From the IMG/VR virus record IMGVR_UViG_2872147552_000001: a stretch of 64,000 nt of DNA. One strand, written 5' to 3'. Shown piece after piece: positions 11,467 through 63,150 of this stretch. How positions within the stretch are numbered: the stretch's first letter is position 1; each line of letters starts with the position of its first letter. The position numbers were made by a program, and so were the translations under genes. Source of the DNA: a virus (Duplodnaviria > Heunggongvirae > Uroviricota > Caudoviricetes). The notes under the pieces were generated by a model, which saw nothing but the letters and a program-made list of their open reading frames with translations, searched no databases and was not told where the DNA came from.

Positions 11467-11479
11467 CCTTGATCTCCTG

Positions 11480-40271: not shown

Positions 40272-40329
40272 GCCTGCTTCCGTATATATTTAATAAGTTA
40301 CTTATTATTTATATATACAGAAGCAGGTC
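40272..40329. repeat. 58-bp AT-rich imperfect palindrome, copy 2, flanked by GGTCTGGG / CCCAGACC inverted repeat
   Basis: gcctgcttccgtatatatttaataagttacttattatttatatatacagaagcaggtc; upstream of terminase operon; two GAAAACAA.TTGTTTTC-type sites lie at about 40190-40240. Confidence 0.7.
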
Positions 40330-45745: not shown

Positions 45746-46168
45746 ATGAAATACTCGCTTCTCCCTCTACTAACGTTACCAGTGTTGATGCTTACCGCGT
45801 GCCAATCACGCCCAATATCAATCCATGACGCCAAACCAGCACCGCAGGCCAAAGTGTTCAAGTATCAAAGCGCAGCGCCAGCTACGTTGGTGGTAATGAG
45901 AGACACAGGTTTTGTAGGAGCTGGATGTGATGCTTCCATTTTCATCAACGGCGAAACTGTCGCAAAACTGGCTACAGGCGAAAAAGCGACTTTCCATTTA
46001 AATGCCGGAGAATTAATTGTGGGTGCATCTCTTGAAGGTGCAGGTTTATGTGCTCTAAACCCCGCTCGTCAAGAGCGAGAAACGACTCTGAAGAATGGAG
46101 ACACAAAAGCATTCAGGGTGTTCACCAGCAATTCTGGTGACATCGACATTCTGCCAACAACTCTGTGA
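45746..46168 (+). CDS. lipoprotein
   Basis: Start placed at MKYSLLPLLTLPVLMLTACQS (lipobox LTAC); track ORF from 45704. Confidence 0.6.
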   Translation: MKYSLLPLLTLPVLMLTACQSRPISIHDAKPAPQAKVFKYQSAAPATLVVMRDTGFVGAGCDASIFINGETVAKLATGEKATFHLNAGELIVGASLEGAGLCALNPARQERETTLKNGDTKAFRVFTSNSGDIDILPTTL

Positions 46169-46172
46169 TGAC

Positions 46173-46697
46173 ATGACAACCAAAGATATTACCTACGGTA
46201 TCCAAGCTGAACTCTGGCCGCGAGATTACACTAACGTTGAAAAACTACTGATGTTCTGGCGCAGAGAACAAATTCCTGTAAGGGTCACTCTCGAAGATGG
46301 CCAGGCGTTTTGCATGTACGTTTATGGCCTCATGCCATCTCGTAACAAAGTTGACCTTTGCCCAGCCCCTTTTGACAAAGAAAATCGTATAAGGCTCCCA
46401 CTTGAACGCATTAGTACAATTGAATCAGGTGTGGTTGACAGTATCGCTCACGATTTCAAAGGTCGACTAACAGTTCACCCTGATTATGTCGATAATCGGC
46501 CATCACGCCGCGATTTTTTTGCAATTTGCAACCAAGCCTACAAAGCAAACAAATCTATAAGGGTGTACATGGCGGATGGCCGTGAAATTGAGGGGGTGTC
46601 AGCAGGCGCAGATGCTTGTCAGGTTACACTACGTGTCGAGAACGGTAGAAAAATAGTTGTTTTGTTCGATTGGGTTGAACGAATTTTGCCTTTTTGA
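46173..46697 (+). CDS. hypothetical protein with internal duplicated beta-rich motif
   Basis: Start placed at first Met after upstream stop (track from 46095); repeated IPVRVTLEDG / IRVYMADG segments. Confidence 0.5.
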   Translation: MTTKDITYGIQAELWPRDYTNVEKLLMFWRREQIPVRVTLEDGQAFCMYVYGLMPSRNKVDLCPAPFDKENRIRLPLERISTIESGVVDSIAHDFKGRLTVHPDYVDNRPSRRDFFAICNQAYKANKSIRVYMADGREIEGVSAGADACQVTLRVENGRKIVVLFDWVERILPF

Positions 46698-48524: not shown

Positions 48525-48935
48525 TTGTCTTTAACTCACTCCAACAACATAAAAATAAGCGCCAAAATAACGCCATAGACGCGCTTTTATATCCTTACCA
48601 GTACATACCCATTACTTAGCACATTAACGCGCTTAAAATGCGTTATATTGCGCTATAACGTATGGCTAATCATTGGCTTTTATTCTTGCTATGTGATCCG
48701 CGTTTATTTGTCGGCGCGGATCGGCATTTTGTGTTGTTCTGTATCCGCTCGCGTATTATGTGCGCGTGATTTTTCACATAATCACACCACTTAATCACGT
48801 ATGTGATTACGCTACGAAAGAAATCTGGATGTCTCAGGCGACGAAAGTCATCATAATTTTCCCCGCTCGCCTGTCCGACAACCGCTGGTTGGATTCCACC
48901 AGCTTCCCGATGTTTTTTTCTACATAAAGGCGAAT

Positions 48936-49055
48936 GCAGCCGTTTCCCGAAAAAATCCTGGCCGTTTCCCGTCGGCTCATGAATACGTTCCTCGCCGTTT
49001 CTGAAAATTTCCCTGCGGCAGCTGGTGGCTATAGAGAAAGGGCCGTTTCTGGCCC
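48936..49055. repeat. iteron-like direct repeats (GCCGTTTCCCGAAAA family), cluster A
   Basis: Four copies of gccgtttc(c)c(g/t)gaaaa-like units at about 48938, 48961, 48994, 49042. Confidence 0.55.
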
Positions 49056-49064
49056 TCTTCTCAG

Positions 49065-49547
49065 TTACACGCCATCAAGGATGTGGATGCGGTTGCTTGC
49101 GTATACATTCAGCATAAAGTTAGCGCAAAACAGTTTCCATGTATCAACGCCAGCGGTATACGTAATGTTTTTGCATTTAATCGCATTGTTGGCGATCCGC
49201 ATCCCCTGCGATACTGCTTCATCGTCGGAAAATTTGAACGACGATTGAGTTTTAATCCAGACAGAAATCTGCGTAGCGAACTCAATCAGCTTGGACTGGC
49301 AGAATCGCCCGGAGCGCACCGGAAAGACGAACGTTCCGAATCCAGAATTTACCACATACGCTTTCTCAAATACCCGCGAGTAACGACGATTGCCAATGAT
49401 GTCGCGTGCAATAATGCATTTTTCTTGTGCTGACAGTTCTACCGTCTCATTGTCGCGCCATGCACCAAGTACTCGTTTTTCAATGTCAGAGAACGTTACA
49501 GCGATATTGCCATGTGCGGGTGCGTTTACAGTAGCGATAAAATTCAT
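49065..49547 (-). CDS. hypothetical protein
   Basis: 160-aa ORF with AAGGA RBS; GAAAACAA.TTGTTTTC-type operator upstream. Confidence 0.55.
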   Translation of the reverse strand: MNFIATVNAPAHGNIAVTFSDIEKRVLGAWRDNETVELSAQEKCIIARDIIGNRRYSRVFEKAYVVNSGFGTFVFPVRSGRFCQSKLIEFATQISVWIKTQSSFKFSDDEAVSQGMRIANNAIKCKNITYTAGVDTWKLFCANFMLNVYASNRIHILDGV

Positions 49548-49724
49548 GATTAATTCCTTATCGTAAATAACAAATTGTTTTCTTGTTGGTGTTAATTATC
49601 GTTGTACGAATAAGGCGTCAAAGTGGAAAGTTGCGGTAGCCGGACGGGAACAGGTGGGTTTGTCGGTTGCCTGGAGGTAAGAGGTTGGTGTTTTTAGCCT
49701 GCGGGAAACAGGATGGTCATTTAA

Positions 49725-49744
49725 GGCCACCAGCATTGGTGGCC
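49725..49744. terminator. hairpin terminator (ggccaccagcattggtggcc)
   Basis: Perfect 8-bp stem immediately downstream of the 49752 gene stop; related hairpins at about 50196-50216, 51821-51839, 58827-58847, 63100-63120. Confidence 0.55.
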
Positions 49745-49751
49745 TTAATCT

Positions 49752-50039
49752 TTAGTGGAGCAGACCGATGTCGATGGTATCCCCTGAATCATCCACACGG
49801 ATCATCAGCATGGCGAAGGCGTTTAGTGGATAACTGGCGTGCCATTCAGGGAAGCGGTCATCTCGCATGAAGTCGGCAATGTCGTAAACGCATCCCTCAA
49901 AGTGGAAGAATCGCGTGCTTACCTGCTCGTCATATTCCACATGATCCATTTCTTGCTGTTCTGTTTCCGGCAAGTCCAGCCATGATTCAAGGAATACATT
50001 TTGTGCTTTAGGGGTAATGGTGAAATCAGTCATGAGCAT
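49752..50039 (-). CDS. small acidic protein
   Basis: Start at MLMTDFTITPK with GAGGA RBS (track ORF to 50165 would cover the upstream operator); strongly acidic. Confidence 0.55.
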   Translation of the reverse strand: MLMTDFTITPKAQNVFLESWLDLPETEQQEMDHVEYDEQVSTRFFHFEGCVYDIADFMRDDRFPEWHASYPLNAFAMLMIRVDDSGDTIDIGLLH

Positions 50040-50368
50040 ATCCTCACTGCGTAAACATGTTGTTTTCTTGTTGGTGTAATTATCGCAGTGTAGATAAGGC
50101 ATAAAAGAAGTTAATACAGGCTGAATACACAAGAAAGGTTCTGGAAGTTGATAGCCAGGTTTCAAACTAACCTTCGGTTATTAAAAGTCATTTAAGACCA
50201 CCAATGCTGGTGGCCTTAATAATTATCGACCGATTACGCTAAGGATCTTTTCCTCAACTGATTTGTTGTTGCGACTAAACTGCCTTGCGTATCTGATGAC
50301 AGAAGAGGCGTTTTGCTTTCTGACCATCTCGGCTCTTTCCTTCAGGCGTTTCTTGAAATCGCCCATAT

Positions 50369-50743
50369 TTACCACCAGGCGCAGAAGGTCAGTCTGTTAT
50401 TGTGAAAGTCGTGGTTCTTAATCAGATCTTCCACAATCTCTTTCAACTCCCCCACATCATGCCAGTAACCTTCATCGTACTCCTGACTGCCGAAGAAAAA
50501 ACCTTCCCGGGTAGGCAAGTACTCTTCGCAATTACTTTCGTTTATGTGCATCAAATGAGCCTTCAGAAAACAAATGTCATTCATCGTTAATTCTAAAAGC
50601 TCACAATTTTCGACTTCACCTACGTTGCGCTCCATCCACCCAACGAGCGCATTGAACTTACGGAAGTAAGCAACCTGCTTTCTGGATGCCTCGTTATTCA
50701 GATCGTTTTTAGGCTGTGTCTCGATATAGATATCAAGTCCCAT
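50369..50743 (-). CDS. small acidic protein
   Basis: Start at MGLDIYIETQ with AAGGAAA RBS (track to 50785). Confidence 0.55.
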   Translation of the reverse strand: MGLDIYIETQPKNDLNNEASRKQVAYFRKFNALVGWMERNVGEVENCELLELTMNDICFLKAHLMHINESNCEEYLPTREGFFFGSQEYDEGYWHDVGELKEIVEDLIKNHDFHNNRLTFCAWW

Positions 50744-50860
50744 GATGGTTTCCTTATTAAGTTGCTTCAGTGAAATCATTTTCACAAATCAGATAAGGCA
50801 GAAAACAAATTGTTATCGGGCATAAGAAAATGGCGCGGTTTACGCGCCATTTAAAGAGGA

Positions 50861-51256
50861 TTAAGCGAATACGCTTTCAGGGATTAAGGTGTCGGCAGGA
50901 ATGCCAGAGGTAATGCGCAGGCCGTACTGACCAATCCAGGCAGTGTTGGTATTCAGGTTGGAGGCGAATACGGTGTCAACCATATTCATCATTGGTTCAA
51001 ACACCTCTTCATCAACCTGGCGGAAGTAGTTCTCGATTTTCAGCAGCAGCGGGTCAGTTGCATCGAAAATAGACTGGTATTGAATCGCGTACTCGCCGCC
51101 GGAGGCATCACCTTTACGCACGATCGTACTGGCCTGGACTTCGGCACCAGTTTCGGTGTTGTACGTAACAACGGTGATTTTTGCCACATTCTTACCTTCG
51201 GCGGTTTCAGAGGCATAGTAAACATCAACTGTCAGTTTTTCGCGTTTAACGGTCAT
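50861..51256 (-). CDS. hypothetical protein
   Basis: Start at MTVKREKLTVDVYY with GGAGAG RBS (track to 51322); TAAGTA-TG-TACTTA operator at about 51301-51316. Confidence 0.55.
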   Translation of the reverse strand: MTVKREKLTVDVYYASETAEGKNVAKITVVTYNTETGAEVQASTIVRKGDASGGEYAIQYQSIFDATDPLLLKIENYFRQVDEEVFEPMMNMVDTVFASNLNTNTAWIGQYGLRITSGIPADTLIPESVFA

Positions 51257-51326
51257 TTCACTCTCCGTAGTGTATTGGTTATTTTTATATTCTATGATCG
51301 TAAGTATGTACTTACAATACAAAAAA

Positions 51327-51347
51327 GCCCCGTAAGGATGGCGGGGC
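51327..51347 (-). terminator. rho-independent terminator
   Basis: gccccgtaaggatggcggggc hairpin followed on minus strand by TTTTTTG. Confidence 0.7.
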
Positions 51348-51382
51348 TGTCGTACTGTCGACTAATTACCACTTGCACATTA

Positions 51383-51694
51383 TCAGGCTATTGCCATCAC
51401 TGATGCTCTCTGAATTTCTTGCTGGGCCACGCGGTTAACTTCCATCAAAGCCAGTTCGAGCTGATGTTCCGGCCACATTCTTTGAAATGCCATCCAGCCT
51501 TTTCCACGCTGGCGACGAACATTCATTACATAACGAGTAAAGGTGTTTTTATCGAAAGACACCGCTGTTTCACGGAACAGACGAATAGAGGTTCCATTGG
51601 CAACGATGTCCAGCAAAGTTAATTGAGCAACCAGCGCAGGCTTCTCTTTTCTCTTCTGGTCTTTGTCCAGACCAAGAACCAATGATTTTTTCAT
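51383..51694 (-). CDS. hypothetical small basic protein
   Basis: Start at MKKSLVLGLDK with ACGGAG RBS (track to 51724). Confidence 0.5.
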   Translation of the reverse strand: MKKSLVLGLDKDQKRKEKPALVAQLTLLDIVANGTSIRLFRETAVSFDKNTFTRYVMNVRRQRGKGWMAFQRMWPEHQLELALMEVNRVAQQEIQRASVMAIA

Positions 51695-51848
51695 CACAAC
51701 TCCGTAAACAACTTGTTTTCTCAATGGCGTAAATAATACCAGTAAGAAAACGGCTACAAAGCATAATGATCAGGTGCATGATCGATATGCAGGTTCTTCC
51801 CTGCGGCTACATATTAAGTTAAGCCAGCAATGCTGGCTTTGGTTGGGG

Positions 51849-52178
51849 TTACTCGAATACTTCAAGAAACTCCTGAACGTCCCAATGCTGGACGAGGTGA
51901 AGATAGACCTTAGAAATCACGTCATTTTCGCTATCGCATGTGAAGTAGTACTTCTGGCTGCGGTTGTATGTGTCCACACAAAATTCGCTCATATCCATAA
52001 AGTCAGCATCTTCACCCATGTCGCAAATCATCAAAGCAGGTGCGTCATCACGAGTCATCAGCTCAAGCACCCACCGCGAATTGATCAGAGTGGAAGACCA
52101 ACCTTCTAACTCATAAAACTGATCAAACTCTTTTTGAGTTAATTTCTTGATTTGGTTGATGTCGATATTTGCAAACAT
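51849..52178 (-). CDS. small acidic protein
   Basis: Start at MFANIDINQIKKL with AAGGA RBS (track to 52196); net charge about -17. Confidence 0.55.
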   Translation of the reverse strand: MFANIDINQIKKLTQKEFDQFYELEGWSSTLINSRWVLELMTRDDAPALMICDMGEDADFMDMSEFCVDTYNRSQKYYFTCDSENDVISKVYLHLVQHWDVQEFLEVFE

Positions 52179-52537
52179 AAAGCAATCCTTAAACAACTTG
52201 TTTTCTTGATGGTGTTATTATCGCAATAACGCACAGGCGAAAAAGGATTTTATTCCGGTGAATGTGGTTTTGGCAGTGAGTTTTCAGGTTCAGTACCGAG
52301 TACACTTTTTACATTATTCTGATTTAGTGGCCGAAGGTGGCTGGTGGGCAGAATAATCATCTCCCCGAAAACCTACTGAAATCGATTGTGACCCGTTGGC
52401 TGTCTGGCACAATTACGCTGTAGCTGGGCATTCAGAGGGAGTCCAACGGTAAGTTAGTCCGCCTGCACGTGAGCGCCTCTCTTCTTCCCGCACATTACAG
52501 GTGGGTAGCCGCAACTCTCCCTCACGCTATACCGGTA

Positions 52538-52680
52538 CGCCGCCGTTCCTGAACCGGCATCGAGCCTTTTCCCGAAATCCACACAGGCAACTCGACCGTT
52601 TCCCTGAAAACCTCCAGCCGTTCCCCGAAGGCAACCCAGCCGTTTCTGTAGCGGGATGCAGCTTTTTCCCTGTATGGACC
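52538..52680. repeat. iteron-like direct repeats (GCCGTTTCCCGAAAA family), cluster B
   Basis: About six units spaced 22-31 bp (gccgttcctgaa, gccttttcccgaaa, accgtttccctgaaaa, gccgttccccgaagg, gccgtttctgtag, gctttttccctgta). Confidence 0.55.
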
Positions 52681-53731
52681 GAAGGCTGACCGTAGGGGTG
52701 TTACGGGGGATAAAATCAGGAGTTGAATAAATACGAAAAAGGAGGCGACACCCCTCCTTCCCTCCCCACTTATACATACCTGGCTTCTTCGCTATACATG
52801 TTGTGTTTTATTCGTGTTTTATCTGTCTCAACCTCTCTATGGACGTTAACACTCACTCCTTCCAGAACGTTCTATACGGCGACTAATTCTGTTGGTGAAT
52901 TGGGTGTGTTGTTCTCTCTGTCGGTGTATGTGGTTTCGTTCGTTTTGCGGTGGTTCTTCTATGGGGTGTTCTCGTCGTTTTGGTGATTGTTCTTCTCCGT
53001 GTATGGAGTAATGGCAGGTGGGCGATTCCTTTCGTTGTTGTGTTTGAGTTGTTTGTCTGGAGTGTGAAAGGCTTTTGTAGTTATTCGTGTATTGGGTAAT
53101 GGCGTTTCCCGTGATTGTTCTGTTTCGTGTCTTTTGGGATTGAGAGAAGCCTTGCGGTTACAGGCTTCGTTGGGGGTTCAGTGATTCTGGTGTTTCTTCG
53201 CTGTTTGGGTAATGGCGTGTCGTGGGTATCGCGCGTATGAATGTTTTCGGATTGCCTGTGAAAGTTAGGTTGGTTGTCCGGTAGCCTGGGGAGAAGAGGT
53301 GGGTCTTTTCGGTAGCCTGCCATAAAGAGGTTGGTTGTTTTTGGAAATGGCATATGTGTTATTTAGTTGTTTTGTTATGCCTGAAAATAAGTTGTTTATA
53401 TGGTTATGTAACGCAACGGGAACGATTTTGAGCGTGTGTTTTTGTTGGTAGTGTGTTGGGTCGTCTGTGGTGAAAATTGGACGCTGTGGCGCTGTCTGCT
53501 GCGTAGAATTACGGGTATAAGCAGTGATGTGTGAAAACGTCAATTTTTTAGACCAAATAGGGTGAAAGCGTTGATGTTTCGTTGATCTGTTATTTAGTTG
53601 TTTTCTTGTTTGTATAAACAACTATAACCTATTGATATTTAAGGATGTGATTGCGGGTATGGAAGGGGAGTAGTGGCGATCAACGGATTCTTATAGAAAA
53701 GAATCAAATTGTGACCGCCATTATCAATGTT

Positions 53732-54466
53732 TTACTTAGTTTTGTTTAGCAGAGAGAGAATTTCATCACTAATTTCACTCGCCTGTTTGATAGCCAATGC
53801 AGTTACCTCTTCTATGGTTGGTGACTGTTGATGCTCATGTTTGGTTTCAGTTATGACAATGTGTTCTTCACCTGAATTTGCGCATAGTGCCGCATTGACT
53901 ATAAGGTTTGAGTAAGAATTTAGCAGAGCACTGTTGATAAACGCTTTCACGGTATTACTGTCTGCACCAAATACATCTTTTCTGACCGCTTCAGCCTCAC
54001 AGCGAACCCCTGCAGCAACATCGTGAAGAACATGTATGGCCTTGGAGCTTGTTTGTTCACAGTACTCAATCATTATTGTCGAATTGTTCTGTTCAACAAA
54101 TGATCTGATGCCTGACGATTCACCCATAGCATCGAAGGCAGCGTGACCCGCACTAGTAGAGATATCTTCGTAGAGTTCTTCATCGCTATCTTTTTCTTCA
54201 GGTGTCGAGGTGTCTTCATCGTCGTAATAGATATTGCCTTTAATCAGTGTTTTGGATACTTGATATAAACAATAAGAGACGAGATTTAAGCATTGGATTT
54301 TAGCTGTATTGTCCTTTGTCGCCTCGCTCTTCAGTTCTTTCGCTTCTTCAGTAAGGCTGTTGATAAGACTTTGTATTTTTTCCAACGCGTTAGGTGCACA
54401 CTCCGCGTTGTCCATAAAGAATTTATAACCAGTTCCAGGGATTTCTAAACTTTTCAACTTTTTCAT
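53732..54466 (-). CDS. hypothetical acidic protein
   Basis: 244-aa ORF, first gene left of the metG-proximal operator pair. Confidence 0.55.
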   Translation of the reverse strand: MKKLKSLEIPGTGYKFFMDNAECAPNALEKIQSLINSLTEEAKELKSEATKDNTAKIQCLNLVSYCLYQVSKTLIKGNIYYDDEDTSTPEEKDSDEELYEDISTSAGHAAFDAMGESSGIRSFVEQNNSTIMIEYCEQTSSKAIHVLHDVAAGVRCEAEAVRKDVFGADSNTVKAFINSALLNSYSNLIVNAALCANSGEEHIVITETKHEHQQSPTIEEVTALAIKQASEISDEILSLLNKTK

Positions 54467-54511
54467 TTCTTTGATAATCCTAAAAACAAACTACCAATGC
54501 TTTAATATCTG

Positions 54512-54811
54512 TTACCAGTTCCAGCACTCAAGCCCTTCAACGACCGGTGCACCACAATCAAAATGTACAGAGTCAAAGCCTACATCAAGTACTTTCTGAA
54601 TGTTAGCAATCGCGCCTTCGGATATACCATATCGACGCAAGTCCTCTTTCCAGACATCATCCTGTAACCCGGCGTGGACAATACAACCGCCGTCAATTTG
54701 CGAAACCCAATCCAGCTCATTGCTTGCGATCATGAATCGGCGAGCATCTTCCTCTGATGTATGAGATGAACTGATCAATGCCACCTGGTAGGCTTGGGTA
54801 ATGTTCAACAT
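54512..54811 (-). CDS. small acidic protein
   Basis: About 99 aa; two GAAAACAA.TTGTTTTC-type operators at 54823-54885 immediately upstream. Confidence 0.5.
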   Translation of the reverse strand: MLNITQAYQVALISSSHTSEEDARRFMIASNELDWVSQIDGGCIVHAGLQDDVWKEDLRRYGISEGAIANIQKVLDVGFDSVHFDCGAPVVEGLECWNW

Positions 54812-54931
54812 TTCAACCACTCCGAAACAATTTGTTTTCTTATGTGGTTTATTATCTCCATCAACAAAAGGCAGAAAACAAATTGTTTTAGGTACTGTGT
54901 AAATCAGAAGGGATTGTGTCTATATGAAAAT

Positions 54932-54972: not shown

Positions 54973-57006
54973 TTACTTAACCTGGTGGCCAGGTTTAGCA
55001 CCAGCATCCGGGCTTAACAGGAAGATATCTTTCCCGCCGGGGCCAGCAGCCATCACCATGCCTTCAGAGATACCGAAGCGCATTTTACGTGGTGCCAGGT
55101 TAGCCACCATAATGGTGTGACGACCAATCAGTGCCTGTGGATCTGGATAAGCGGAACGGATGCCTGAGAAGACATTACGCTTTTCACCACCGAGATCCAG
55201 CGTCAGGCGAAGCAGTTTGTCAGAACCTTCTACAAACTCTGCGTTTTCAATCAGCGCCACGCGCAGGTCAACTTTGGCGAAGTCGTCAAAGGTGATAGTT
55301 TCCTGAATCGGGTCGTCAGCCAGTGGGCCAGTTACCGGTGCGGCTGTGGCTTTCACTTCTTCTTTGGATGCTTCCACCAGTGCTTCAACCTGCTTCATAT
55401 CGATGCGGTTATACAGTGCCTTGAACGGATTTACTTTATGGCCCAGCAGCGGTTGCTGGATACCATCCCAGGTCAGTTCTGTATTCAGGAATGCTTCTGC
55501 ACGTTCAGTCAGTTTCGGCAGTACCGGCTTCAGGTACGTCATCAGCACGCGGAACAGGTTAATGCCCATAGAGCAAATCGCCTGCAGATCGGCATCGCGA
55601 CCTTCCTGCTTCGCCACCACCCACGGAGCCTGTTCATCGACATAGCGGTTAGCCAGGTCAGCCAATGCCATGATTTCACGGATAGCTTTACCAAATTCGC
55701 GGCTTTCCCATGCTTCGCCAATCACTTCAGCGGCATCAGTAAAGGTTTTGTACAGTTGCGGGTCAGCCAGTTCGCTTGCCAGCACGCCGTCAAAACGCTT
55801 GTTTATAAAGCCTGCATTACGGGAGGCCAGGTTAACCACTTTGTTCACGATATCGGCATTCACGCGCTGAACGAAATCCTCCAGGTTGAGATCGATATCA
55901 TCAATGCGCGAAGAGAGTTTCGCAGTGTAGTAGTAACGCAGGCTGTCGGCGTCAAAATGATTCAGCCAGGTGCTGGCTTTAATAAAGGTGCCGCGAGACT
56001 TGGACATCTTCGCGCCGTTCACCGTCACATAGCCGTGAACAAACAGGTTGGTCGGCTTGCGGAAGTTGCTGCCTTCCAGCATGGCAGGCCAGAACAGGCT
56101 GTGGAAGTAAACAATATCTTTACCGATGAAGTGGTACAGCTCGGCGGTGGAGTCTTTCTTCCAGTATTCATCGAAGCTGGTGGTATCGCCGCGCTTGTCG
56201 CACAGATTCTTGAAGGAACCCATGTAGCCAATCGGCGCGTCCAGCCAGACGTAGAAATATTTGCCCGGCGCGTCCGGAATTTCAAAACCGAAGTAAGGCG
56301 CATCGCGGGAGATATCCCACTGTTGCAGGCCGGATTCAAACCATTCCTGCATTTTGTTCGCCACCTGCTCCTGCAACGCGCCGCTGCGGGTCCATGCCTG
56401 CAACATTTCGCTGAAAGAAGGCAGATCAAAGAAGAAGTGTTCGGAATCACGCATTACCGGGGTAGCGCCAGAAACCACCGATTTCGGCTCGATCAATTCA
56501 GTCGGGCTATATGTTGCGCCGCAGACTTCACAGTTATCGCCGTATTGATCTGGCGCTTTACATTTCGGGCAGGTGCCTTTTACAAAACGATCCGGCAGGA
56601 ACATGCCTTTTTCCGGGTCGTACAACTGAGAGATAGTGCGGTTTTTAATAAAACCGTTCTCTTTCAGGCGAGTATAGATAAGCTCAGACAACTGACGGTT
56701 CTCTTCGCTGTGCGTCGAGTGATAGTTGTCATAGCTGATGTTAAAGCCTGCGAAATCAGTCTGGTGTTCCTGACTCATTTCGCCAATCATCTGCTCCGGT
56801 GTGATACCAAGCTGCTGCGCTTTCAGCATGATCGGCGTACCGTGGGCATCGTCGGCACAGATGAAATTAACCTCGTGGCCGCGCATTCGCTGGTAACGAA
56901 CCCAGACATCAGCCTGGATGTGCTCCAGCATATGGCCGAGGTGGATTGAGCCGTTAGCGTACGGCAGCGCGCACGTCACCAGAATTTTCTTCGCGACTTG
57001 GGTCAT
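54973..57006 (-). CDS. metG: methionine--tRNA ligase
   Basis: 677-aa product starting [37 protein letters not shown] and KMSKS motifs, Zn knuckle CPKC...CEVC; recalled from memory as near-identical to E. coli MetG; track ORF has a 43-codon spurious N-terminal extension. Confidence 0.97.
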
Positions 57007-57163
57007 AGTAGGCATTACTTCTTTGTAGTGAAAAGGGGCTTGATAGTAACAAAATGGCCTTATGTCTGCCATGTGATAACAGCATTTCTCATAAATGATT
57101 AAATGTCGTAGCTGGAGTACACTACAAGGCGACAATTGCGCAAATTAAAATAAAGGAGACGGG

Positions 57164-58264
57164 ATGAGCGAGTCCAAATCGCCGGATGCCCTGAGAGCAA
57201 TGGTAGCCGGTACGCTGGCTAATTTTCAGCACCCAACCCTGAAACACAACCTGACTACGCTTAAAGCGTTACACCATGTTGCGTTGATGGATGACACACT
57301 GCATGTCGAACTAATCATGCCTTTCGTGTGGAATAAGCCTTTTGAAGACCTGAAAGAGCAATGTAGTGGTGATCTGCTCCGTATCACTGGCGCAAAGGCT
57401 ATTGACTGGAAGCTGTCGTACAACATTGCCACGCTTAAGCGCGTCAAAAACCAACCAGGCATTAATGGCGTTAAGAACATTATCGCCGTCAGCTCAGGCA
57501 AGGGCGGCGTGGGTAAATCCTCCACGGCGGTAAACCTGGCACTGGCGTTGGCTGCTGAAGGTGCGAAAGTTGGTATTTTGGATGCCGATATCTATGGTCC
57601 ATCAATTCCAACCATGCTGGGTGCGGAAAACCAACGTCCAACCTCACCTGACGGTACTCACATGGCACCTATCATGTCTCATGGCCTGGCAACCAACTCT
57701 ATTGGTTATCTGGTCACCGACGACAATGCAATGGTGTGGCGTGGACCGATGGCCAGCAAGGCGCTGATGCAGATGTTGCAGGAAACTCTATGGCCTGATC
57801 TGGACTATCTCGTTCTCGATATGCCGCCGGGCACTGGTGATATTCAGTTGACGCTGGCGCAGAACATTCCTGTAACTGGTGCGGTTGTGGTAACTACGCC
57901 GCAAGACATCGCGCTGATCGATGCGAAGAAAGGCATTGTGATGTTCGAAAAAGTCGAAGTGCCGGTACTGGGTATCGTCGAAAACATGAGTGTGCATATT
58001 TGCAGTAACTGCGGTCATCACGAGCCAATTTTTGGCACCGGTGGCGCACAGAAACTGGCCGAGAAATACAACACGCAGTTGTTAGGCCAAATGCCACTTC
58101 ATATCTCTCTTCGTGAAGATCTGGATAACGGAACACCAACCGTTATTAGTCGTCCAGATAGCGAATTTACGGCTATTTATCGTGACCTCGCAGATCGCGT
58201 TGCCGCCCAAATGTATTGGCAAGGTGAAGTAATACCTGGCGAAATCGCATTCCGCGCAGTGTGA
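57164..58264 (+). CDS. apbC: Fe-S cluster carrier ATPase Mrp/ApbC
   Basis: P-loop SGKGGVGKSST, CxxC motif ICSNCGHH; 366 aa; divergent from metG as in the E. coli chromosome. Confidence 0.95.
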   Translation: MSESKSPDALRAMVAGTLANFQHPTLKHNLTTLKALHHVALMDDTLHVELIMPFVWNKPFEDLKEQCSGDLLRITGAKAIDWKLSYNIATLKRVKNQPGINGVKNIIAVSSGKGGVGKSSTAVNLALALAAEGAKVGILDADIYGPSIPTMLGAENQRPTSPDGTHMAPIMSHGLATNSIGYLVTDDNAMVWRGPMASKALMQMLQETLWPDLDYLVLDMPPGTGDIQLTLAQNIPVTGAVVVTTPQDIALIDAKKGIVMFEKVEVPVLGIVENMSVHICSNCGHHEPIFGTGGAQKLAEKYNTQLLGQMPLHISLREDLDNGTPTVISRPDSEFTAIYRDLADRVAAQMYWQGEVIPGEIAFRAV

Positions 58265-58301: not shown

Positions 58302-58691
58302 CTACATCACGGGACAATCATCAAACTCGCCACTTCTTGCGTCGTTGATAATGTGAGTGATCACACCAAACACGGCATTGCTGCCCGTGCATCCATCGTC
58401 ATCCTTTGGCAATGCTTCCTTCTTACCGGTTCTTAAATCCTCCAGATGCTGACGTGGGTACTTCCGGTATCTTTTTACGCGATATTCCCCATCCAGAGCG
58501 CATACAAGCAGAGAACCATCAACCGGGGTAAGCGAGGAATCGACCACCAGCAATGCACCCTGTAATATTCCCTCACGATGATGACTATCAGCTGCCCTCA
58601 TGAAGTAGGTCGCTGAAGGATGTCTAATTATCTGCTGATCAAGAGAAATACGGCTCTCAGCATAATCCGCCGCAGGAGAAGGGAAGCCCAT
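58302..58691 (-). CDS. UmuD'-like S24 peptidase (lacks N-terminal arm)
   Basis: Begins MGFPSPAADYAE (equivalent to the UmuD cleavage-site region), retains Ser (DSH) and Lys (RVKRYRK) of the catalytic dyad; 129 aa. Confidence 0.75.
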   Translation of the reverse strand: MGFPSPAADYAESRISLDQQIIRHPSATYFMRAADSHHREGILQGALLVVDSSLTPVDGSLLVCALDGEYRVKRYRKYPRQHLEDLRTGKKEALPKDDDGCTGSNAVFGVITHIINDARSGEFDDCPVM

Positions 58692-58863
58692 AGCGTTTTG
58701 CCCTCAATACTGTTCATTTATACAGTATACATGAAAGAAGCTCACTCAGTGCAACTGATCGGTACATAGCACCAGACAAAGGAACGTTATTTTCTCGAAC
58801 AAGAAAAGGTAGAAAACAAATTGTTTAAGGCCACAACTAGTGGCCTTAATGGAGAAGGGATGC

Positions 58864-59388
58864 TTATTGGCTATGGCTAAAAATCAAATGAGACACTTCA
58901 TTTGGTTGTAGCTCGTCAAGATCCGGGGCCACAAAACCTTTTCCAAAAGACTTCACAAGTGATTCACCAGCCGCATCATTGTCACCTATTACGCGAAAGT
59001 CATACGGCAGCATTGCCAGTTGACGACGTAATCCTGCTGAGAAAGTCGAACCTAACAGCGCCCACGAATTTCCGCCCGCGTTGTGCACTGCTGCACTTTT
59101 AAAAATCGACTCAGTTATCCATATCGGTCCATCTTTTAAAGGAAGATAGGTTCCCCATAGTAGCTGTCTGCCGTTCGCTCGTGTGAAATACCGGGCCATC
59201 TTCGGATTGCTATGCTGCTTAGGAGCGCCTGGTCTGTATGTCTGATACCCGGCCAACATCCCATCAAACCTGTATAGAGGGAACGTAACAACTCCTTCGC
59301 TTTCATCGATCCACTGTCTATATGGATGCACATCATGGCGGTAGTTACGAGTTAGCAAATGAGCTTCCAGCTTTCCATATTTGGTCAT
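58864..59388 (-). CDS. small TOPRIM-like domain protein
   Basis: DFRVIGDNDAAGE (DxD-type TOPRIM motif); start at internal Met after upstream stop (track to 59427). Confidence 0.45.
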   Translation of the reverse strand: MTKYGKLEAHLLTRNYRHDVHPYRQWIDESEGVVTFPLYRFDGMLAGYQTYRPGAPKQHSNPKMARYFTRANGRQLLWGTYLPLKDGPIWITESIFKSAAVHNAGGNSWALLGSTFSAGLRRQLAMLPYDFRVIGDNDAAGESLVKSFGKGFVAPDLDELQPNEVSHLIFSHSQ

Positions 59389-59401
59389 AACTTCGCATCC
59401 C

Positions 59402-60217
59402 TCATAACACTTCCCATTTATCACCATATTTCTCCATAGCTCTTAGCCAGTAAACATGGCCACTAGGCATAGTGATGTGAGGCTCGCCAAACTCTTCTCC
59501 ATGCACATCAAAGATGTCCCCAACAGAGAATTGGGGGATTTCTACGCCGTTTTCACCTATATGCGTAATTCGTATACGTTTCGGTTGAGATTCTCCCCCT
59601 TTGAGCGAGTTGTTCACTGCTCTGGCAATCTTCTCCCGCAATTGCTGCGTTCCGTGGTACTGAACCGCAATATCCCTCAACTCATTCACCAGTTCTCGAA
59701 TCTGGTGATCTTTAAGCTCATTATTTGAGTGATGGGTAACAACTCTGGTTAATTCACCCTTGTCTTTTGCTCTTACGTATGCAGCTCTTGTGCATTCGAC
59801 CCATGTATTACCGCCTACATTAACTTCGTAGATTAGGCTGGACTTATCTGTCAATTCGGAACAAATACGGGCCGTGGTCTGGCAACTAGAGCATTCGCAG
59901 TTATCGCGGAAACCGTGATCTACCGGTCGAGAAAGAGGTTTAACTTTTTCATCCAACTTCATCACAGCATCGTGATAAGCGTTCCAGCCGTCATCTTTAC
60001 CAAGTTGATAAATCTCTGAAGGCTCCATGTAGTCTATATCGCAACCTTCTTCATCCGATCTATCTGGTCGCTTCCCTGGTAATCGCTCATAAAAACGATT
60101 TCTGTCTCGACGTTCGGCTCTCAGTGCTAACGCAAGAAGTTGCTCAAGCGAGGTATTTGCACCAGCAATAATTTCATTGAGAATATCTTCTGTGAGATCT
60201 TTCGCTACCGTGCTCAT
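59402..60217 (-). CDS. hypothetical protein
   Basis: 271-aa ORF in coupled minus-strand operon; Cys cluster CECSSC. Confidence 0.5.
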   Translation of the reverse strand: MSTVAKDLTEDILNEIIAGANTSLEQLLALALRAERRDRNRFYERLPGKRPDRSDEEGCDIDYMEPSEIYQLGKDDGWNAYHDAVMKLDEKVKPLSRPVDHGFRDNCECSSCQTTARICSELTDKSSLIYEVNVGGNTWVECTRAAYVRAKDKGELTRVVTHHSNNELKDHQIRELVNELRDIAVQYHGTQQLREKIARAVNNSLKGGESQPKRIRITHIGENGVEIPQFSVGDIFDVHGEEFGEPHITMPSGHVYWLRAMEKYGDKWEVL

Positions 60218-60597
60218 TTATCTCTCTCAGTATGTTGCGATGGCGTAAATTTGACGACATCAAATATTTTGGATGGCATCAACTTTATCCGCGAGCTTAG
60301 TTCGGCTCTTCTCTGTAATGCGGTTAATAATGTTTTCGTTCTGACGCCTTCGTGTATCCTCATCCCTGGCACAAGAACTACATCGCAGGGGAGATGCTCA
60401 GGTGACAAATCATTTTGGGCATCGCTAATCAGTCGTGTAATCTCTCTTTCAAGCCGACCGCCTAGCTCTGTTTTAGTGCAATGTTCTGACCAATCACCAG
60501 CCTCAAGCAGCGCGAGAATGCTTAAAATATCGTCCAATAGATCAGTGGTATTATCGACTTCCTTCTGAAGCTCACCGGCTACTGATTTATGCATCAT
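60214..60597 (-). CDS. hypothetical protein
   Basis: 127-aa ORF, ATGA-type overlap with neighbours. Confidence 0.45.
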   Translation of the reverse strand: MMHKSVAGELQKEVDNTTDLLDDILSILALLEAGDWSEHCTKTELGGRLEREITRLISDAQNDLSPEHLPCDVVLVPGMRIHEGVRTKTLLTALQRRAELSSRIKLMPSKIFDVVKFTPSQHTERDK

Positions 60598-61247: not shown

Positions 61248-61432
61248 TAGGCAGCTCTCTCAACAACAAGCAATTCGTCGTAGTCATAATCAGTTTCGGA
61301 ACCATCCGTACCGAACAGAGTCACTTTGTCATTTTCCATCCAAAAAGATTTAACCGCACATTGTTGACCTTTAGATGTTATGAGCACATCACCAGGGATT
61401 ACGTCTTCAGCGCGAACCTCTAGTGTTCTCAT
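61247..61432 (-). CDS. hypothetical small protein
   Basis: 61-aa ORF coupled in operon. Confidence 0.35.
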   Translation of the reverse strand: MRTLEVRAEDVIPGDVLITSKGQQCAVKSFWMENDKVTLFGTDGSETDYDYDELLVVERAA

Positions 61433-63031: not shown

Positions 63032-63150
63032 TCTTAACTCCGTTGTTTTCTAGTTGTGGTTATTTTCACAAATAAGAAAAGGTAGAAAACAATTTATTTA
63101 AGGCCACAACTTATGGCCTTTATTTATTCATGCCGAAGGATTTGTAGCGT

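Follow-up and report, generated by a model that had tools for sequence, protein, structure and literature searches.

A probable island of recombining, commonly regulated gene cassettes in an SSU5-type phage-plasmid of Escherichia coli

Ocr, a DNA-mimic anti-restriction protein, has a net charge per residue of about -0.24, and in Salmonella the target of FljA is the leader of the fliC mRNA. Members of the DUF5983 family adjoin cbtA in chromosomal CP4-44-type elements. PeSL elements have been described in T4-type phages (PMC2839356). RNA-seq data are available for phage Cyrano in strain LF82 (PMC9928086, Table 1 and S1 Table), and reflect a stressed lysogen rather than a synchronised infection.

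The window analysed here, a 64,000-nucleotide stretch of DNA, belongs to an E. coli phage-plasmid of the SSU5 type and shows 98.5% identity to phage Cyrano/pLF82. An identity search of the element returned matches in 245 E. coli genomes, all plasmid-only. The island under study consists of nine ORFs (g1 to g9), all on the minus strand and organised in at least seven self-contained units. ORFs reported by the earlier note are all present at their positions, on the minus strand. Our favoured reading, which we hold to be probable though far from certain, is that the interval is a hyperplastic accessory-gene island of the phage-plasmid, made of self-contained, recombining and commonly regulated cassettes with mixed early host-modifying or counter-defence products. 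The left part of the island contains the following features:

48930-49060, minus strand: repeat cluster 1, (C)AGGGAAACGGC in about four copies, immediately 3' of g1 (family D6).
49038-49057, minus strand: g1 terminator hairpin, GGGCC..GGCCC then TTTCTCT (3' region, -22.4 kcal/mol).
49065-49547, minus strand: g1, 160 aa, basic, pI 9.16, phrog_1641 (family of unknown function).
49566-49625, minus strand: g1 promoter-operator cassette, class A, GATAAT, 14 nt, operator 49568-49580 (families D1 and D4).
49721-49748, no strand: 28-nt symmetric hairpin after g2, TTAAGGCCACC..GGTGGCCTTAA, -25 kcal/mol (D9, I1).
49752-50039, minus strand: g2, 93-95 aa, acidic, net charge -15, phrog_1845.
50045-50120, minus strand: g2 promoter-operator cassette, class A, TGcGATAAT, 13 nt, operator 50053-50065 (family D2).
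50192-50219, no strand: second copy of the 28-nt hairpin, after g3, -21.5 kcal/mol.
50223-50366, minus strand: g3, putative CDS, 47 aa, basic, pI 11, its start overlapping the g4 stop.
50369-50743, minus strand: g4, 124 aa, acidic.
50778-50815, minus strand: promoter-operator cassette of the g4-g3 unit, class B, inverted operator 50803-50815, 19 nt, GAAAAT (family D5).

The remaining genes and their signals are as follows:

50828-50852, minus strand: g5 intrinsic terminator, AAATGGCGCG..CGCGCCATTTTCTT, -17.3 kcal/mol.
50861-51256, minus strand: g5, 131 aa, acidic, pI 4.41, phrog_2473.
51289-51317, minus strand: g5 promoter, TTGTAA-17-TAGAAT.
51326-51348, minus strand: g6 intrinsic terminator, CAGCCCCG..CGGGGCTTTTTT, -23.7 kcal/mol.
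51383-51694, minus strand: g6, 103 aa, basic, pI 10.5, phrog_5125, kept across the supergroup.
51706-51761, minus strand: g6 promoter-operator cassette, class A, TGgTATTAT, 14 nt, operator 51706-51718 (family D1).
51821-51839, minus strand: g7 hairpin, AAGCCAGC..GCTGGCTT, -21.9 kcal/mol.
51849-52178, minus strand: g7, 109 aa, acidic, net charge -14, phrog_7645.
52183-52258, minus strand: g7 promoter-operator cassette, class A, TGcGATAAT, 13 nt, operator 52191-52203 (family D2).
53675-53720, minus strand: nested hairpin directly 3' of g8, -19.1 kcal/mol, kept in all relatives.
53732-54466, minus strand: g8, 244 aa, acidic, pI 4.69, phrog_20845.
54512-54811, minus strand: g9, 99 aa, acidic, DUF5983 C-terminal domain.
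54825-54888, minus strand: g9 promoter with two operators around the -10 element (54876-54888, GATAAT, 54825-54837).

The acidity of the four ORFs singled out by the earlier note was confirmed (pI 4.13 for g2, 4.69 for g4, 4.21 for g7 and 4.35 for g9). Its picture of an array of small acidic proteins fits six ORFs (pI 4.1-4.7) but not g1, g3 and g6, which are basic (pI 9.2-11). A pI below 4.7 is found in 6 of the 8 annotated CDS of the island, versus 12 of 112 elsewhere on the same plasmid. Eight of the nine ORFs match PHROG families over their full length, the exception being g3, which has no PHROG family; it is annotated in Cyrano (CYRAN_109) and PhiR41_1, and is absent from the RefSeq annotation. 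Searches of the nine proteins with Pfam, NCBIfam and PADLOC models gave no match save that of g9 to DUF5983 (PF19419; E 7.1e-11, 42.7 bits, cut-off 27), and none of the nine matches a solved DNA mimic in sequence. Neither g1 nor g6 has a match in PDB.

The gene families vary in breadth. The most widely conserved gene of the island is g1, which, along with the adjoining repeat cluster 1, is kept in pHCM2, pMT1 and Klebsiella plasmids, and g5 is kept across the SSU5 supergroup, with orthologues in SSU5 (SSU5_114), Enterobacter, Citrobacter and Klebsiella. The g2 family, 35 clusters, is exclusive to SSU5-like enterobacterial plasmids, and the g7 family, only 10 clusters, is restricted to E. coli. 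The g4 protein belongs to a very large unnamed family (consensus MGLDMYL..YWRK.N..GFFFG..Y..AWW), the members of which have a median pI of 4.57, 85% of them lying below 5; its near-invariant residues are M1, G2, L3, D4, Y26, R28, K29, N31, P77, GFFFG, Y89, Y93 and W124. The g4 structure model is confident and weakly resembles YfbM and the DNA mimic DMP12. The g8 product corresponds to CYRAN_102, annotated in Cyrano as having coiled-coil segments.

The operator shared by most units has as its core the palindrome AAACAA-N-TTGTTT (AGAAAACAA-N-TTGTTT), 13-16 bp in length. On both strands of the window, GAAAACAANTTGTTT has 26 matches versus 1.17 expected, and the core palindrome occurs at 19 sites on the whole 108-kb plasmid versus 0.73 in simulations. 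Eight of the 19 sites fall inside the island, which is 5% of the plasmid, and about 11 further copies lie ahead of replication, nucleotide-metabolism and terminase genes, preceding the helicase, nrdB, cobT, terS, ParA-like and UmuD-like genes. Promoter and operator form a block that recurs as a 55-76-nt repeat family. In class A blocks, the operator lies 13-14 nt downstream of the -10 element, and would thus cover roughly +1 to +20; in class B blocks, an inverted copy has its end exactly 19 nt upstream of the -10 element, and would thus cover the -35 region. The g9 promoter combines both placements, its operators being centred 51 bp apart (I8, 16-nt arms, 100% complementary). Relatives from Salmonella, Klebsiella, Enterobacter and Citrobacter have operators and repeat clusters at these same positions. 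The island promoters are consensus-level predictions; a generic sigma-70 scan gave 7 sites versus 11.8 in shuffled sequence, i.e., fewer than chance.

Every unit ends in a hairpin, and those after g1, g2, g3, g5, g6, g7 and g8 range from -17 to -25 kcal/mol. The proposal that each gene has its own operator, promoter and hairpin thus holds for most units, which feature a sigma-70 -10 element, a palindromic operator and a stable hairpin, but g9-g8 and g4-g3 lack an intervening hairpin, and the g5 promoter has a different motif: it lacks a AAACAANTTGTTT operator and overlaps, at 51303-51316, a palindrome belonging to a second family of motifs (GGTAAGTAnTTACC-like). The putative master repressor (CYRAN_45 type) has a divergent control region in which GGTAAGCACTTACC occurs and the island operator does not; with a different palindrome of its own, this repressor is probably not the proposed common operator-binding regulator. 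The similar array that the earlier note placed to the right of apbC turned out to be a single operon of eight overlapping genes (58864-63031), with one operator-hairpin element at either end.

Related plasmids gain and lose genes exactly at the repeated regulatory elements. Recurrent breakpoints coincide with the hairpin pair around g2 (49749/50187), the operator of the g7 promoter (52190-52206) and the g8 slot (53727/54512). The first two are each used in two or three of five E. coli relatives, and the third in all five compared, the hairpin at 53675-53720 being the left edge of the slot. The hairpin at 49721-49748, one arm of the repeat pair bracketing the g2 cassette, is the recombination joint in relatives L008 and L014, and the g7 promoter cassette is a recurrent insertion joint, at which L008, L015 and L016 carry an extra acidic ORF of 71-72 aa. 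In relatives, the g8 slot is either empty or filled by a 61-aa ORF, which in some cases is joined by a 186-189-aa ORF. The hydrophobic stretches of the latter, judged by eye, give it the look of a membrane protein. Products of the alternative cassettes are again small and acidic. Since relatives differ at the repeated elements, cassettes appear to be gained, lost and replaced by recombination between them. The adjoining cargo comprises metG and apbC in E. coli and a GIY-YIG nuclease in some relatives; in Klebsiella relatives, the adjoining slot holds a type I restriction-modification subunit and a DUF262 protein, which suggests an arms-race neighbourhood.

In LB lysogens, island genes are expressed near the prophage background except g8 (CYRAN_102) and g3 (CYRAN_109), which are about 6-fold above it and are listed as morons (PMC9928086). 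In the same data set, all nine genes are up by 1-4 log2 units in macrophages versus LB. Between macrophages and medium at 1 h, the median change is +1.26 across the island genes and +0.52 across the others (p = 0.011); the rise of structural genes comes mainly at 6 h (PMC9928086). The strongest induction in macrophages is that of g7 (3.3 to 7.6 log2 units), and g5 (CYRAN_107) is still rising at 6 h, like capsid and tail genes. Silence in the lysogen followed by early induction under stress is the pattern expected of host-takeover or counter-defence genes. Genes sharing the island operator are not expressed uniformly, the helicase CYRAN_32 being flat and the ParA-like and UmuD-like genes well expressed in lysogens, so simple common repression stays a proposal.

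Between g7 and g8, the interval, described by the earlier note as an array of small genes, contains 1.5 kb of conserved non-coding DNA that had been overlooked:

52210-53730, minus strand: conserved non-coding element, about 1.5 kb, with nucleotide conservation and no conserved ORF.
52540-52690, minus strand: repeat cluster 2, about six (C)AGGGAAACGGCTGG units 22, 31 or 33 bp apart (families D6 and D8).
52736-52762, minus strand: terminator-like hairpin, GGGAAGGAGGGG..CCTCCTTTTT, kept with substitutions in relatives.
52790-53500, minus strand: A/C-rich, G-poor tract (A 40%, C 31%, G 14%, T 15%; families D3 and D7).
53515-53617, minus strand: promoter-like block, TTGACG-N17/18-TTATAC(C), with an operator half-site cassette at 53597-53617 (D4 copy).

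The element is 68-74% identical in nucleotide sequence to Salmonella SSU5 and Klebsiella phages. Indels between relatives are not multiples of three, and no ORF is conserved in place or frame among the relatives compared; the pseudo-ORFs CYRAN_103 and CYRAN_104 show little expression. The element has no match in Rfam and no excess of RNA folding energy. The A/C-rich tract includes three to four GCCATTACCCAATACACGGAGAAGAA repeats, two CAGGCTACCG repeats and one operator-like site (53385-53397), and the columns of the promoter-like block are invariant in a four-genome alignment. On the whole plasmid, the repeat motif is confined to clusters 1 and 2, and the position of cluster 1 is kept in Salmonella, Klebsiella, Enterobacter and Citrobacter relatives.

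This confinement of the phased GGGAAACGGC repeats to two clusters raises the possibility of a replication, partition or incompatibility locus in part of the interval, the repeats and the non-coding element serving as a lytic origin or copy control and g1 and g6 as DNA-binding factors. The spacing of the repeats approximates two or three helical turns, their position is conserved across five genera, and cluster 1 and g1, the most widely conserved parts, extend to pMT1-sized Yersinia plasmids (~101 kb) and pHCM2-sized Salmonella plasmids (~107 kb). The non-coding element is conserved where its flanking genes are not, shows no sign of a stable RNA fold and is little transcribed, and g1 and g6 are basic. 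However, the plasmid repA is about 35 kb away and lacks these repeats, neither an AT-rich unwinding element nor DnaA boxes were identified, no DNA-binding domain is detectable in g1 or g6, the A/C-rich tract is atypical of an origin, and the acidic genes are left unexplained; we regard this reading as doubtful. Translational control by the palindrome, acting as an RNA operator bound by an RNA-binding repressor, is suggested by the position of the operator inside the 5' leader, as class A motifs lie 3-25 nt before the Shine-Dalgarno sequence within the predicted leader. A candidate repressor is encoded 3 kb away, at 46095-46697, by a full-length FljA homologue (Flag1_repress, E 2.5e-84) conserved in SSU5-like plasmids. 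Yet class B copies, inverted and upstream of the -10 element at a fixed 19 nt, fit recognition of DNA and not RNA, the possible RNA hairpin has merely 5-6 A-U pairs, and nothing links FljA-like proteins to the operator sequence, which makes this account very improbable.

For the proteins themselves, g2, g4, g7 and g9 might be DNA mimics of the Ocr or ArdA type, made on entry to block the DNA-binding sites of host nucleases. Such a role would agree with their pI of 4.1-4.7 and net charge of -10 to -15 in 93-124 residues, the enrichment of the island in acidic proteins, the conserved acidity of the g4 family, early induction, the restriction genes in the neighbouring slot of a Klebsiella relative and a gene turnover as quick as an arms race predicts. 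It is nonetheless unlikely, as no Pfam model (g9 DUF5983 aside) or solved structure is matched by sequence, the near-invariant residues of the g4 family are for the most part not of the acidic surface kind, Ocr is far more densely charged, and the AlphaFold2 model of g2 (pLDDT 55.7) is too poor to use. The autonomy of the transcription units, the lysogenic expression of g8 and g3, the adjoining cargo genes and the membrane-like alternative in the g8 slot would all suit morons, i.e., host-benefit cargo expressed in lysogeny (for example, superinfection exclusion or defence) in place of lytic or early functions. However, seven of the nine genes are at or near the prophage background in LB lysogens, the operator is common to the helicase, nrdB and terS promoters, and no PADLOC defence model matches any of the nine, so that morons are a distinctly unlikely description of the whole set.

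According to the accessory-island reading that we favour, a cassette would combine a small ORF with a stem-loop terminator and a sigma-70 promoter in which a dimer-type operator is embedded. One DNA-binding dimer would repress the island promoters and about 11 others on the element, keeping island genes low in the plasmid-prophage state and releasing them early upon derepression or infection, and cassettes would be exchanged by recombination between the repeated regulatory elements. The island is functionally mixed, since g8 and g3 are expressed in lysogens, g5 has a late-gene motif and g1 and g6 are basic and near phased repeats. Most likely, it encodes a varied group of early host-modifying or counter-defence factors, mostly small, acidic and lineage-restricted; among its genes are the lysogeny-expressed g8 and g3 and the probable late-class gene g5, and the g1 and g6 products may act on the adjacent repeats. 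The idea of an anti-defence or host-takeover island thus survives in part. Accessory, fast-turning-over genes for small, mostly acidic proteins, mostly silent in the lysogen and induced early by stress, make an anti-defence role plausible, but the set is mixed and matches neither Ocr, ArdA nor any other named anti-defence family.

The earlier note likened the charge profile of these proteins to that of Ocr or ArdA; their charge density is lower than that of Ocr, at -0.10 to -0.16 net charges per residue versus about -0.24. In their exchange among relatives, the island units resemble the PeSL cassettes of T4-type phages, which are similarly gained, lost and replaced via repeated regulatory elements.

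The segment 49000-54900 aligns over its full length, at 98.5% identity, with Escherichia phage Cyrano (pLF82), the SSU5-type phage-plasmid of E. coli strain LF82. Matches to the island, which spans about 49065-54820, were found in 245 of 5426 complete E. coli genomes, all on plasmids of ~105-120 kb and none on chromosomes. In the remainder of the window, one side is taken up by tail, capsid, portal and terminase genes, the other by accessory genes of the Ea22/DUF551 type. We rejected the possibility that the window is a chromosome in which two prophages surround metG and apbC: the whole window is a single phage-plasmid, and metG-apbC is cargo. Both genes are carried by the element itself, as annotated in Cyrano and in plasmid NZ_CP061531. 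They form a divergent pair (54973-58264), as on the chromosome, share ~90% identity with the pair on the E. coli chromosome and are present in 223 plasmid records. In the Cyrano lysogen, apbC is expressed ~9-fold over background, and metG is near background.

The island consists of nine ORFs, termed g1 to g9, and a non-coding element.

Features of the island (coordinates, strand, description)
49065-49547, minus strand: g1, 160 residues, pI 9.2
49752-50039, minus strand: g2, 93-95 residues, pI 4.13
50223-50366, minus strand: g3, 47 residues, pI 11
50369-50743, minus strand: g4, 124 residues, pI 4.69
50861-51256, minus strand: g5, 131 residues, pI 4.41
51383-51694, minus strand: g6, 103 residues, pI 10.5
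51849-52178, minus strand: g7, 109 residues, pI 4.21
52210-53730, minus strand: non-coding element, no credible gene, best nucleotide conservation of the island (68-74% identity across genera)
53732-54466, minus strand: g8, 244 residues, pI 4.69
54512-54811, minus strand: g9, 99 residues, pI 4.35

Proteins with a pI <4.7 are encoded by 15% of all CDSs on the reference plasmid, and by 6 of the 8 annotated CDSs in the island versus 12 of 112 elsewhere. The acidic bias of the island is real but moderate. The small acidic products described in the earlier note are thereby borne out, the four ORFs it named (g2, g4, g7 and g9) having pI values of 4.13-4.69. It also likened their charge profile to that of DNA mimics such as Ocr and ArdA. 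The candidates have pI 4.1-4.7 and a net charge of -10 to -15, with a charge density of -0.10 to -0.16 per residue. Ocr is more extreme, with a net charge per residue of roughly -0.24.

The operators noted upstream of the island genes are genuine. Allowing up to 2 mismatches, the motif GAAAACAANTTGTTT has 26 matches on both strands of the window, versus 1.17 expected. The core palindrome AAACAA-N-TTGTTT, with up to 1 mismatch, occurs at 19 sites on the complete 108,197-bp plasmid, versus 0.73 expected from first-order Markov simulations, in which the maximum was 3 sites. All 19 sites are intergenic and located upstream of gene starts, and 8 of them fall within the 5.3-kb island. Outside the island, the palindrome precedes a DUF7238 gene, cobT, and genes encoding a DnaB-like helicase and a ParA/MipZ-like ATPase, as well as terS, a UmuD-like S24 peptidase gene, the Ea/HD operon, a TerB-like gene, a hypothetical gene and nrdB. 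Sites at equivalent positions precede the orthologous island genes in Salmonella phage SSU5 and in Klebsiella, Enterobacter and Citrobacter plasmids.

Two arrangements of the operator were identified. In class A (g1, g2, g6, g7 and the proximal site of g9), a -10 element of the form (TGn)GATAAT or TATTAT is followed after 13-14 nt by AGAAAACAANTTGTTT, and 3-25 nt separate the latter from the Shine-Dalgarno sequence and start codon. In class B (the g4-g3 unit, the distal site of g9, the UmuD-like gene with its site at 58814-58826, and the HD gene with its site at 63087-63099), the site is inverted and is followed after exactly 19 nt by GA(A/T)AAT. The g9 promoter combines both classes, with centres 51 bp apart that form a perfect 16-nt inverted repeat (family I8). 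The promoter-operator blocks correspond to direct-repeat families of 55-76 nt (D1, D2, D4 and D5). The promoter of g5 is of another kind: it is devoid of the palindrome, and its predicted sequence, TTGTAA-17-TAGAAT, overlaps a palindrome unlike that of the operator. Past the stop codons of g1, g2, g3, g5, g6, g7 and g8 lie stable hairpins (-17 to -25 kcal/mol), and none is found between g9 and g8 or between g4 and g3. The predicted units are accordingly [g9(-g8)], [g8], [non-coding], [g7], [g6], [g5], [g4-g3], [g2] and [g1]. The earlier note had given each of seven or more small genes its own operator, promoter and terminator, which is true of most units; the exceptions are g5, without the operator, and the pairs g9-g8 and g4-g3, without an intervening hairpin.

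Operator-bearing loci also lie elsewhere in the window. Upstream of terS (39523-40155), the 40190-40290 region contains two tandem operators followed by a strong terminator-like hairpin (AGAGCGCATGGACGCGCTCT, then GTGTGTTTT), a layout that suggests antitermination control of the structural operon. The UmuD-like S24 peptidase (58302-58691, minus strand) has no DNA-binding domain and is encoded behind the class B operator. Its Cyrano orthologue, CYRAN_98, is among the most expressed genes and increases from ~7 to 12 log2 units in macrophages.

The block to the right of apbC is organized differently. It had been described as a similar array of individually promoted genes; instead, the 58864-63031 region contains eight overlapping genes that form a single operon, with one operator-hairpin element at each end. 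The HD hydrolase and the acidic-tailed protein reported there were both confirmed, as an HD_4 domain and a DUF551 protein with an acidic tail, respectively. The 'toprim' label in this block comes from RefSeq annotation only.

RNA-seq values for every Cyrano gene in LF82 are available (PMC9928086, Table 1 and S1 Table). After overnight growth in LB, the island genes stay close to the prophage background, with a median log2(5+FPKM) of 3.5 versus 3.2 for the other Cyrano genes. Only CYRAN_102 (g8) and CYRAN_109 (g3) stand out, each ~6-fold above background and both classed as morons by the authors (PMC9928086). In macrophages, all nine island genes rise by 1-4 log2 units relative to LB; for instance, g7 rises from 3.3 to 7.6, and g2 from 2.7 to 5.8-6.0. 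When macrophages are compared with medium at 1 h, the median change is +1.26 for the island and +0.52 for other genes (Mann-Whitney p = 0.011). Structural genes rise chiefly at 6 h, and g5 tracks these late genes, showing the largest 6-h increase within the island. The data fit an island that is mostly repressed in the lysogen and released early, the cells being a stressed lysogen and not a synchronised infection. Other operator-bearing genes behave unevenly: the helicase gene has a flat profile, and good expression is seen for the ParA-like and UmuD-like genes. The top Cyrano transcript, 723-fold above background, is CYRAN_43 (OV696614 40268-40822, outside the window), annotated as a 184-residue 'hypothetical protein' adjoining the integrase. 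It has no match in Pfam, and the corresponding position in NZ_CP061531 carries an ISKox3 insertion; the transcript could be a non-coding RNA or encode an unrecognised lysogeny factor.

Class A sites cover the start-site region and class B sites cover the -35 region. Because both placements overlap the core promoter, the operator has the appearance of a repressor site, from which we infer a dimeric DNA-binding repressor. Alternatively, the palindrome might act at the RNA level, in the 5' leader, for instance via the FljA-like protein encoded at 46095-46697. We consider this quite improbable, as the fixed, inverted class B copies lie upstream of the promoter and point to recognition of DNA. The putative DNA-binding repressor is probably not the master repressor of the phage. 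The LF82 study proposed CYRAN_45, a 128-residue protein with an XRE-type HTH that adjoins the integrase gene, as the putative lysogeny repressor (PMC9928086). The divergent control region of CYRAN_45 contains a perfect GGTAAGCACTTACC, and the AAACAANTTGTTT site is absent from it. The island operator was consequently rejected as the master repressor's site, and it probably belongs to a second regulator.

The FljA-like protein (46095-46697, plus strand) is a full-length homologue of the phase-1 flagellin repressor (Pfam Flag1_repress, E 2.5e-84). It is kept in SSU5-like plasmids of several genera, in which it is annotated as a 'transcriptional regulator'. Its gene in Cyrano, CYRAN_114, is moderately expressed in lysogens and is induced in medium and in macrophages; the protein might silence host flagellin. 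A second motif, with the coding-strand consensus ATA-GGTAAGTAnTTACyTA, has 10 matches in the window versus 1.2 expected, with starts that include 352, 7135, 11869, 17831, 31256, 34831, 36747, 38254 and 51303. Its orientation is the same throughout, and most copies lie within ~75 nt upstream of the start codons of structural or late genes, one being in the g5 promoter. The perfect GGTAAGCACTTACC in the control region of the putative master repressor is outside the window. This motif may be a late-promoter element or the operator of the master repressor.

The window was compared with five E. coli relatives, namely PhiR41_1 and four plasmids. Differences concentrate at three recurrent joints. The first (49749/50187) is marked by two 28-nt hairpin copies, TTAAGGCCACC..GGTGGCCTTAA, that flank g2. 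The hairpin pair corresponds to 39-nt direct repeats 471 bp apart; g2 is absent in two of the five relatives, and the alignment overlap at the joint of this loss is the hairpin repeat itself. The second joint (52190-52206) falls within the g7 promoter's operator, where an additional unit is present in three relatives: a promoter-operator of its own, an acidic ORF of 71-72 residues (pI 4.1-4.5) and a hairpin. This cassette insertion is resolved base by base in the alignment. The third joint (53727/54512), which extends from a nested hairpin to the g9 stop codon, differs in all five relatives. There, the g8 slot is empty, or contains a 61-residue ORF, or contains the same ORF together with one of 186-189 residues that has the look of a membrane protein.

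On a broader scale, 728 plasmid records from Klebsiella, Escherichia, Enterobacter, Yersinia, Salmonella, Citrobacter and Cronobacter match parts of the island. Among the records listed, the complete nine-gene island is found only in those of the Escherichia type, and 72 records cover at least 80% of it. The core shared across genera comprises g1, g2, g5, g6, two ORFs of ~70 residues and the non-coding element. Beyond the non-coding element lies a hotspot for cargo and defence genes, a slot that in E. coli is occupied by g8, g9, metG and apbC. In the same slot, the Klebsiella plasmid CP034055.1 encodes a DUF262 protein and the M subunit of a type I restriction-modification system (8930-11794), and an Enterobacter relative encodes a GIY-YIG nuclease (9067-9903).

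The non-coding element has a modular organization. Read 5' to 3' on the minus strand, it starts with a conserved nested hairpin, a cassette with an operator half-site and an invariant TTGACG-N17/18-TTATAC(C). These are followed by ~700 nt composed of 40% A, 31% C, 14% G and 15% T, in which three to four GCCATTACCCAATACACGGAGAAGAA repeats, two CAGGCTACCG repeats and one more operator-like site are found. A terminator-like hairpin comes next, and then about six (C)AGGGAAACGGCTGG repeats spaced by 22, 31 or 33 bp. Four further copies of (C)AGGGAAACGGCTGG are located just downstream of g1 (48930-49060), 3.6 kb away. The repeats are direct repeats in helical phase, as in iteron-type loci, arranged in two clusters and maintained across genera. 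The element also features internal repeat families in addition to the phased GGGAAACGGC repeats.

Three other readings of this element were considered. The ORFs that Cyrano and SSU5 annotations place in it were judged spurious: indels across genera are not multiples of three, and the many open frames simply reflect a strand rich in A and C and short of T and G, and none is conserved in position. A structured RNA or a CsrA-type sponge was set aside in favour of an element that works at the DNA level, as Rfam searches of the element returned nothing, its folding z-scores (+0.32 and -0.54) are no better than those of shuffled sequence, and the overlapping pseudo-ORFs show little expression in Cyrano. 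The repeats were also considered as RepA iterons; this reading was rejected because repA lies elsewhere on the plasmid and the (C)AGGGAAACGGCTGG repeat is absent from its vicinity, as from the rest of the plasmid. Read as a cis element that acts at the DNA level, it could be a candidate lytic origin or a locus for copy control or silencing, and g1 and g6, both basic, perhaps serve it.

The earlier note had proposed that the acidic products are DNA-mimic anti-defence proteins of the Ocr/ArdA type, a claim to which sequence and structure tests lend no support. Searches of the nine proteins against all Pfam-A (E ≤0.1) matched only g9, which is a C-terminal domain of DUF5983 (PF19419; E 7.1e-11, 42.7 bits versus a cut-off of 27, model positions 3-90 of 90). 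DUF5983 is a domain of unknown function, encoded next to cbtA/cbeA in chromosomal elements of the CP4-44 type. NCBIfam and PADLOC searches yielded nothing significant, and no protein matched Ocr, ArdA, ArdB-KlcA, T7 gp5.9 or other named anti-restriction families in Pfam-A, NCBIfam or PADLOC. End-to-end PHROG families were found for all proteins except g3, and every one of these families is of unknown function. Sequence and profile searches of the PDB gave no credible match to a solved structure. Two marginal matches were discarded: that of g7 to multicystatin (E 1e-4, although no individual segment passed the threshold) was taken as chance, and that of the 61-residue ORF of the relatives to the T7 gp5.9 model (16.9 bits versus a cut-off of 24.5, over 17 residues) is not significant. 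Since they match no named anti-defence model or structure, the genes have no entry in present anti-defence catalogues. In a published screen with DefenseFinder, SSU5-like phage-plasmids proved almost devoid of known anti-defence genes. The DNA-mimic idea, which is based on charge and one weak fold resemblance, is a reasonable hypothesis.

The proteins differ widely in distribution. Homologues of g2 (35 clusters) and g7 (10 clusters) all come from SSU5-like enterobacterial plasmids, and the g2 model, obtained from a shallow alignment, is too poor for use at a pLDDT of 55.7. In contrast, the g4 family comprises 2479 representative clusters (E ≤1e-3) and at least 7979 clusters at 90% identity; its members, which number in the thousands and occur in phages and bacteria, share the consensus MGLDMYL..YWRK.N..GFFFG..AWW. 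None of them matched a relevant Pfam model, and the family is a candidate new domain family. The AlphaFold2 model of g4, the only confident one for the island and based on a 66-sequence alignment, has a pLDDT of 96.5 and a pTM of 0.88. Foldseek retrieved nothing significant from the PDB and, from BFVD, only uncharacterised phage proteins, including those of jumbo phages (best E 6e-11). Members are consistently acidic (median pI 4.57). Near-invariant residues are M1, G2, L3, D4, Y26, R28, K29, N31, P77, the GFFFG motif, Y89, Y93 and W124, and the acidic patch at positions 88-96 is moderately conserved. A defined binding or active site fits this conservation pattern at least as well as a DNA mimic would. 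Distant g4 homologues are found in arrays of small ORFans on phage contigs and, in one case, as a lone chromosomal gene, and their genomic context gave no clue to function.

Taken as an observation, the array reported in the earlier note is largely correct and lies far beyond chance. It is possible, if somewhat doubtful, that the SSU5-type lineage (pHCM2, pMT1, pLF82) has an undescribed two-tier control, in which a dimeric regulator of the second tier, other than the master repressor, would gate ~19 individually promoted early units, nearly half of them in the island, via AAACAA-N-TTGTTT, and GGTAAGTAnTTACC would mark late genes. On the same tentative reading, the 1.5-kb element, with its phased repeats and 700-nt A/C-rich tract, would be a new cis locus (a lytic origin, or a copy-control or silencing site), and the swappable cassettes would be a reservoir of new counter-defence proteins, including the g4 family.

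Phage-plasmids of the SSU5 type occur commonly in clinical E. coli, Klebsiella, Salmonella Typhi, Shigella and Yersinia pestis, and how they are regulated is essentially uncharted. Should the cassette model prove right, it offers a defined operator through which to trace both the regulator and the set of early genes, ~10-15 interchangeable small proteins whose counter-defence or host-takeover activity can be screened, and, in the conserved non-coding element, a candidate for a lytic origin or a control locus. The model would moreover extend to temperate phage-plasmids the PeSL (promoter-early stem-loop) idea of regulatory cassettes as recombination handles that shuffle ORFans. With a confident model and no Pfam entry, the g4 family is a ready target for naming and experiments. 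The anatomy of the island is clean, testable and widespread in clinical plasmids; any function of its products is putative.

The island can be compared with several known systems. The DNA mimics Ocr, ArdA, gp5.9 and DMP12 (PMC3643605) have no sequence relationship to the island proteins, which have a lower charge density; most residues conserved in the g4 family are non-acidic, and the similarity is no stronger than that to unrelated domains. In the case of DUF5983, g9 is a lone gene on a phage-plasmid, controlled by a promoter with two operators, and no CbtA/CbeA pair is encoded close by. The island resembles lambdoid morons and nin/ea regions in having autonomous promoter-gene-terminator units between core genes, and Ea22-like, Eaa-like and DUF551 genes, which are typical of such regions, are found to the right of apbC. 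As in morons, g8 and g3 are transcribed in the lysogen; in contrast, the other seven genes sit near background there, and the units have a common operator. Phage P1 uses an asymmetric 17-mer as the operator for its master repressor C1, and many copies of it are scattered, each at its own promoter, in place of one or two master operators. The island operator is similarly present in many copies across a phage-plasmid, at individual lytic and accessory promoters, but it is a 13-bp palindrome and is absent from the control region of the putative master repressor.

The likeness is greatest to the PeSL cassettes that T4-type phages carry in their hyperplastic regions (Arbiol et al. 2010, PMC2839356; Comeau et al. 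2014, PMC4122927). In both cases, repeated composites of a sigma-70-type promoter and a stem-loop surround small ORFans, and relatives differ at cassettes, implying recombination. In the island, the composites belong to families D1, D2, D4, D5 and D9, with predicted promoters, and they flank small ORFs in a variable region with junctions at the cassettes. In contrast to the virulent myoviruses, the host here is a temperate siphovirus-type phage-plasmid, and the cassette adds a palindromic operator common to core-gene promoters. On account of the AAACAANTTGTTT palindrome and the unrelated host phages, the cassette sequence is presumably unrelated to PeSL. Because of the other phage type and the added operator, PeSL is the closest analogue of the island rather than a class to which it belongs. 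The best-supported interpretation is that of a PeSL-like, operator-gated cassette island of an SSU5-type phage-plasmid, functionally mixed and equipped with a conserved non-coding element.
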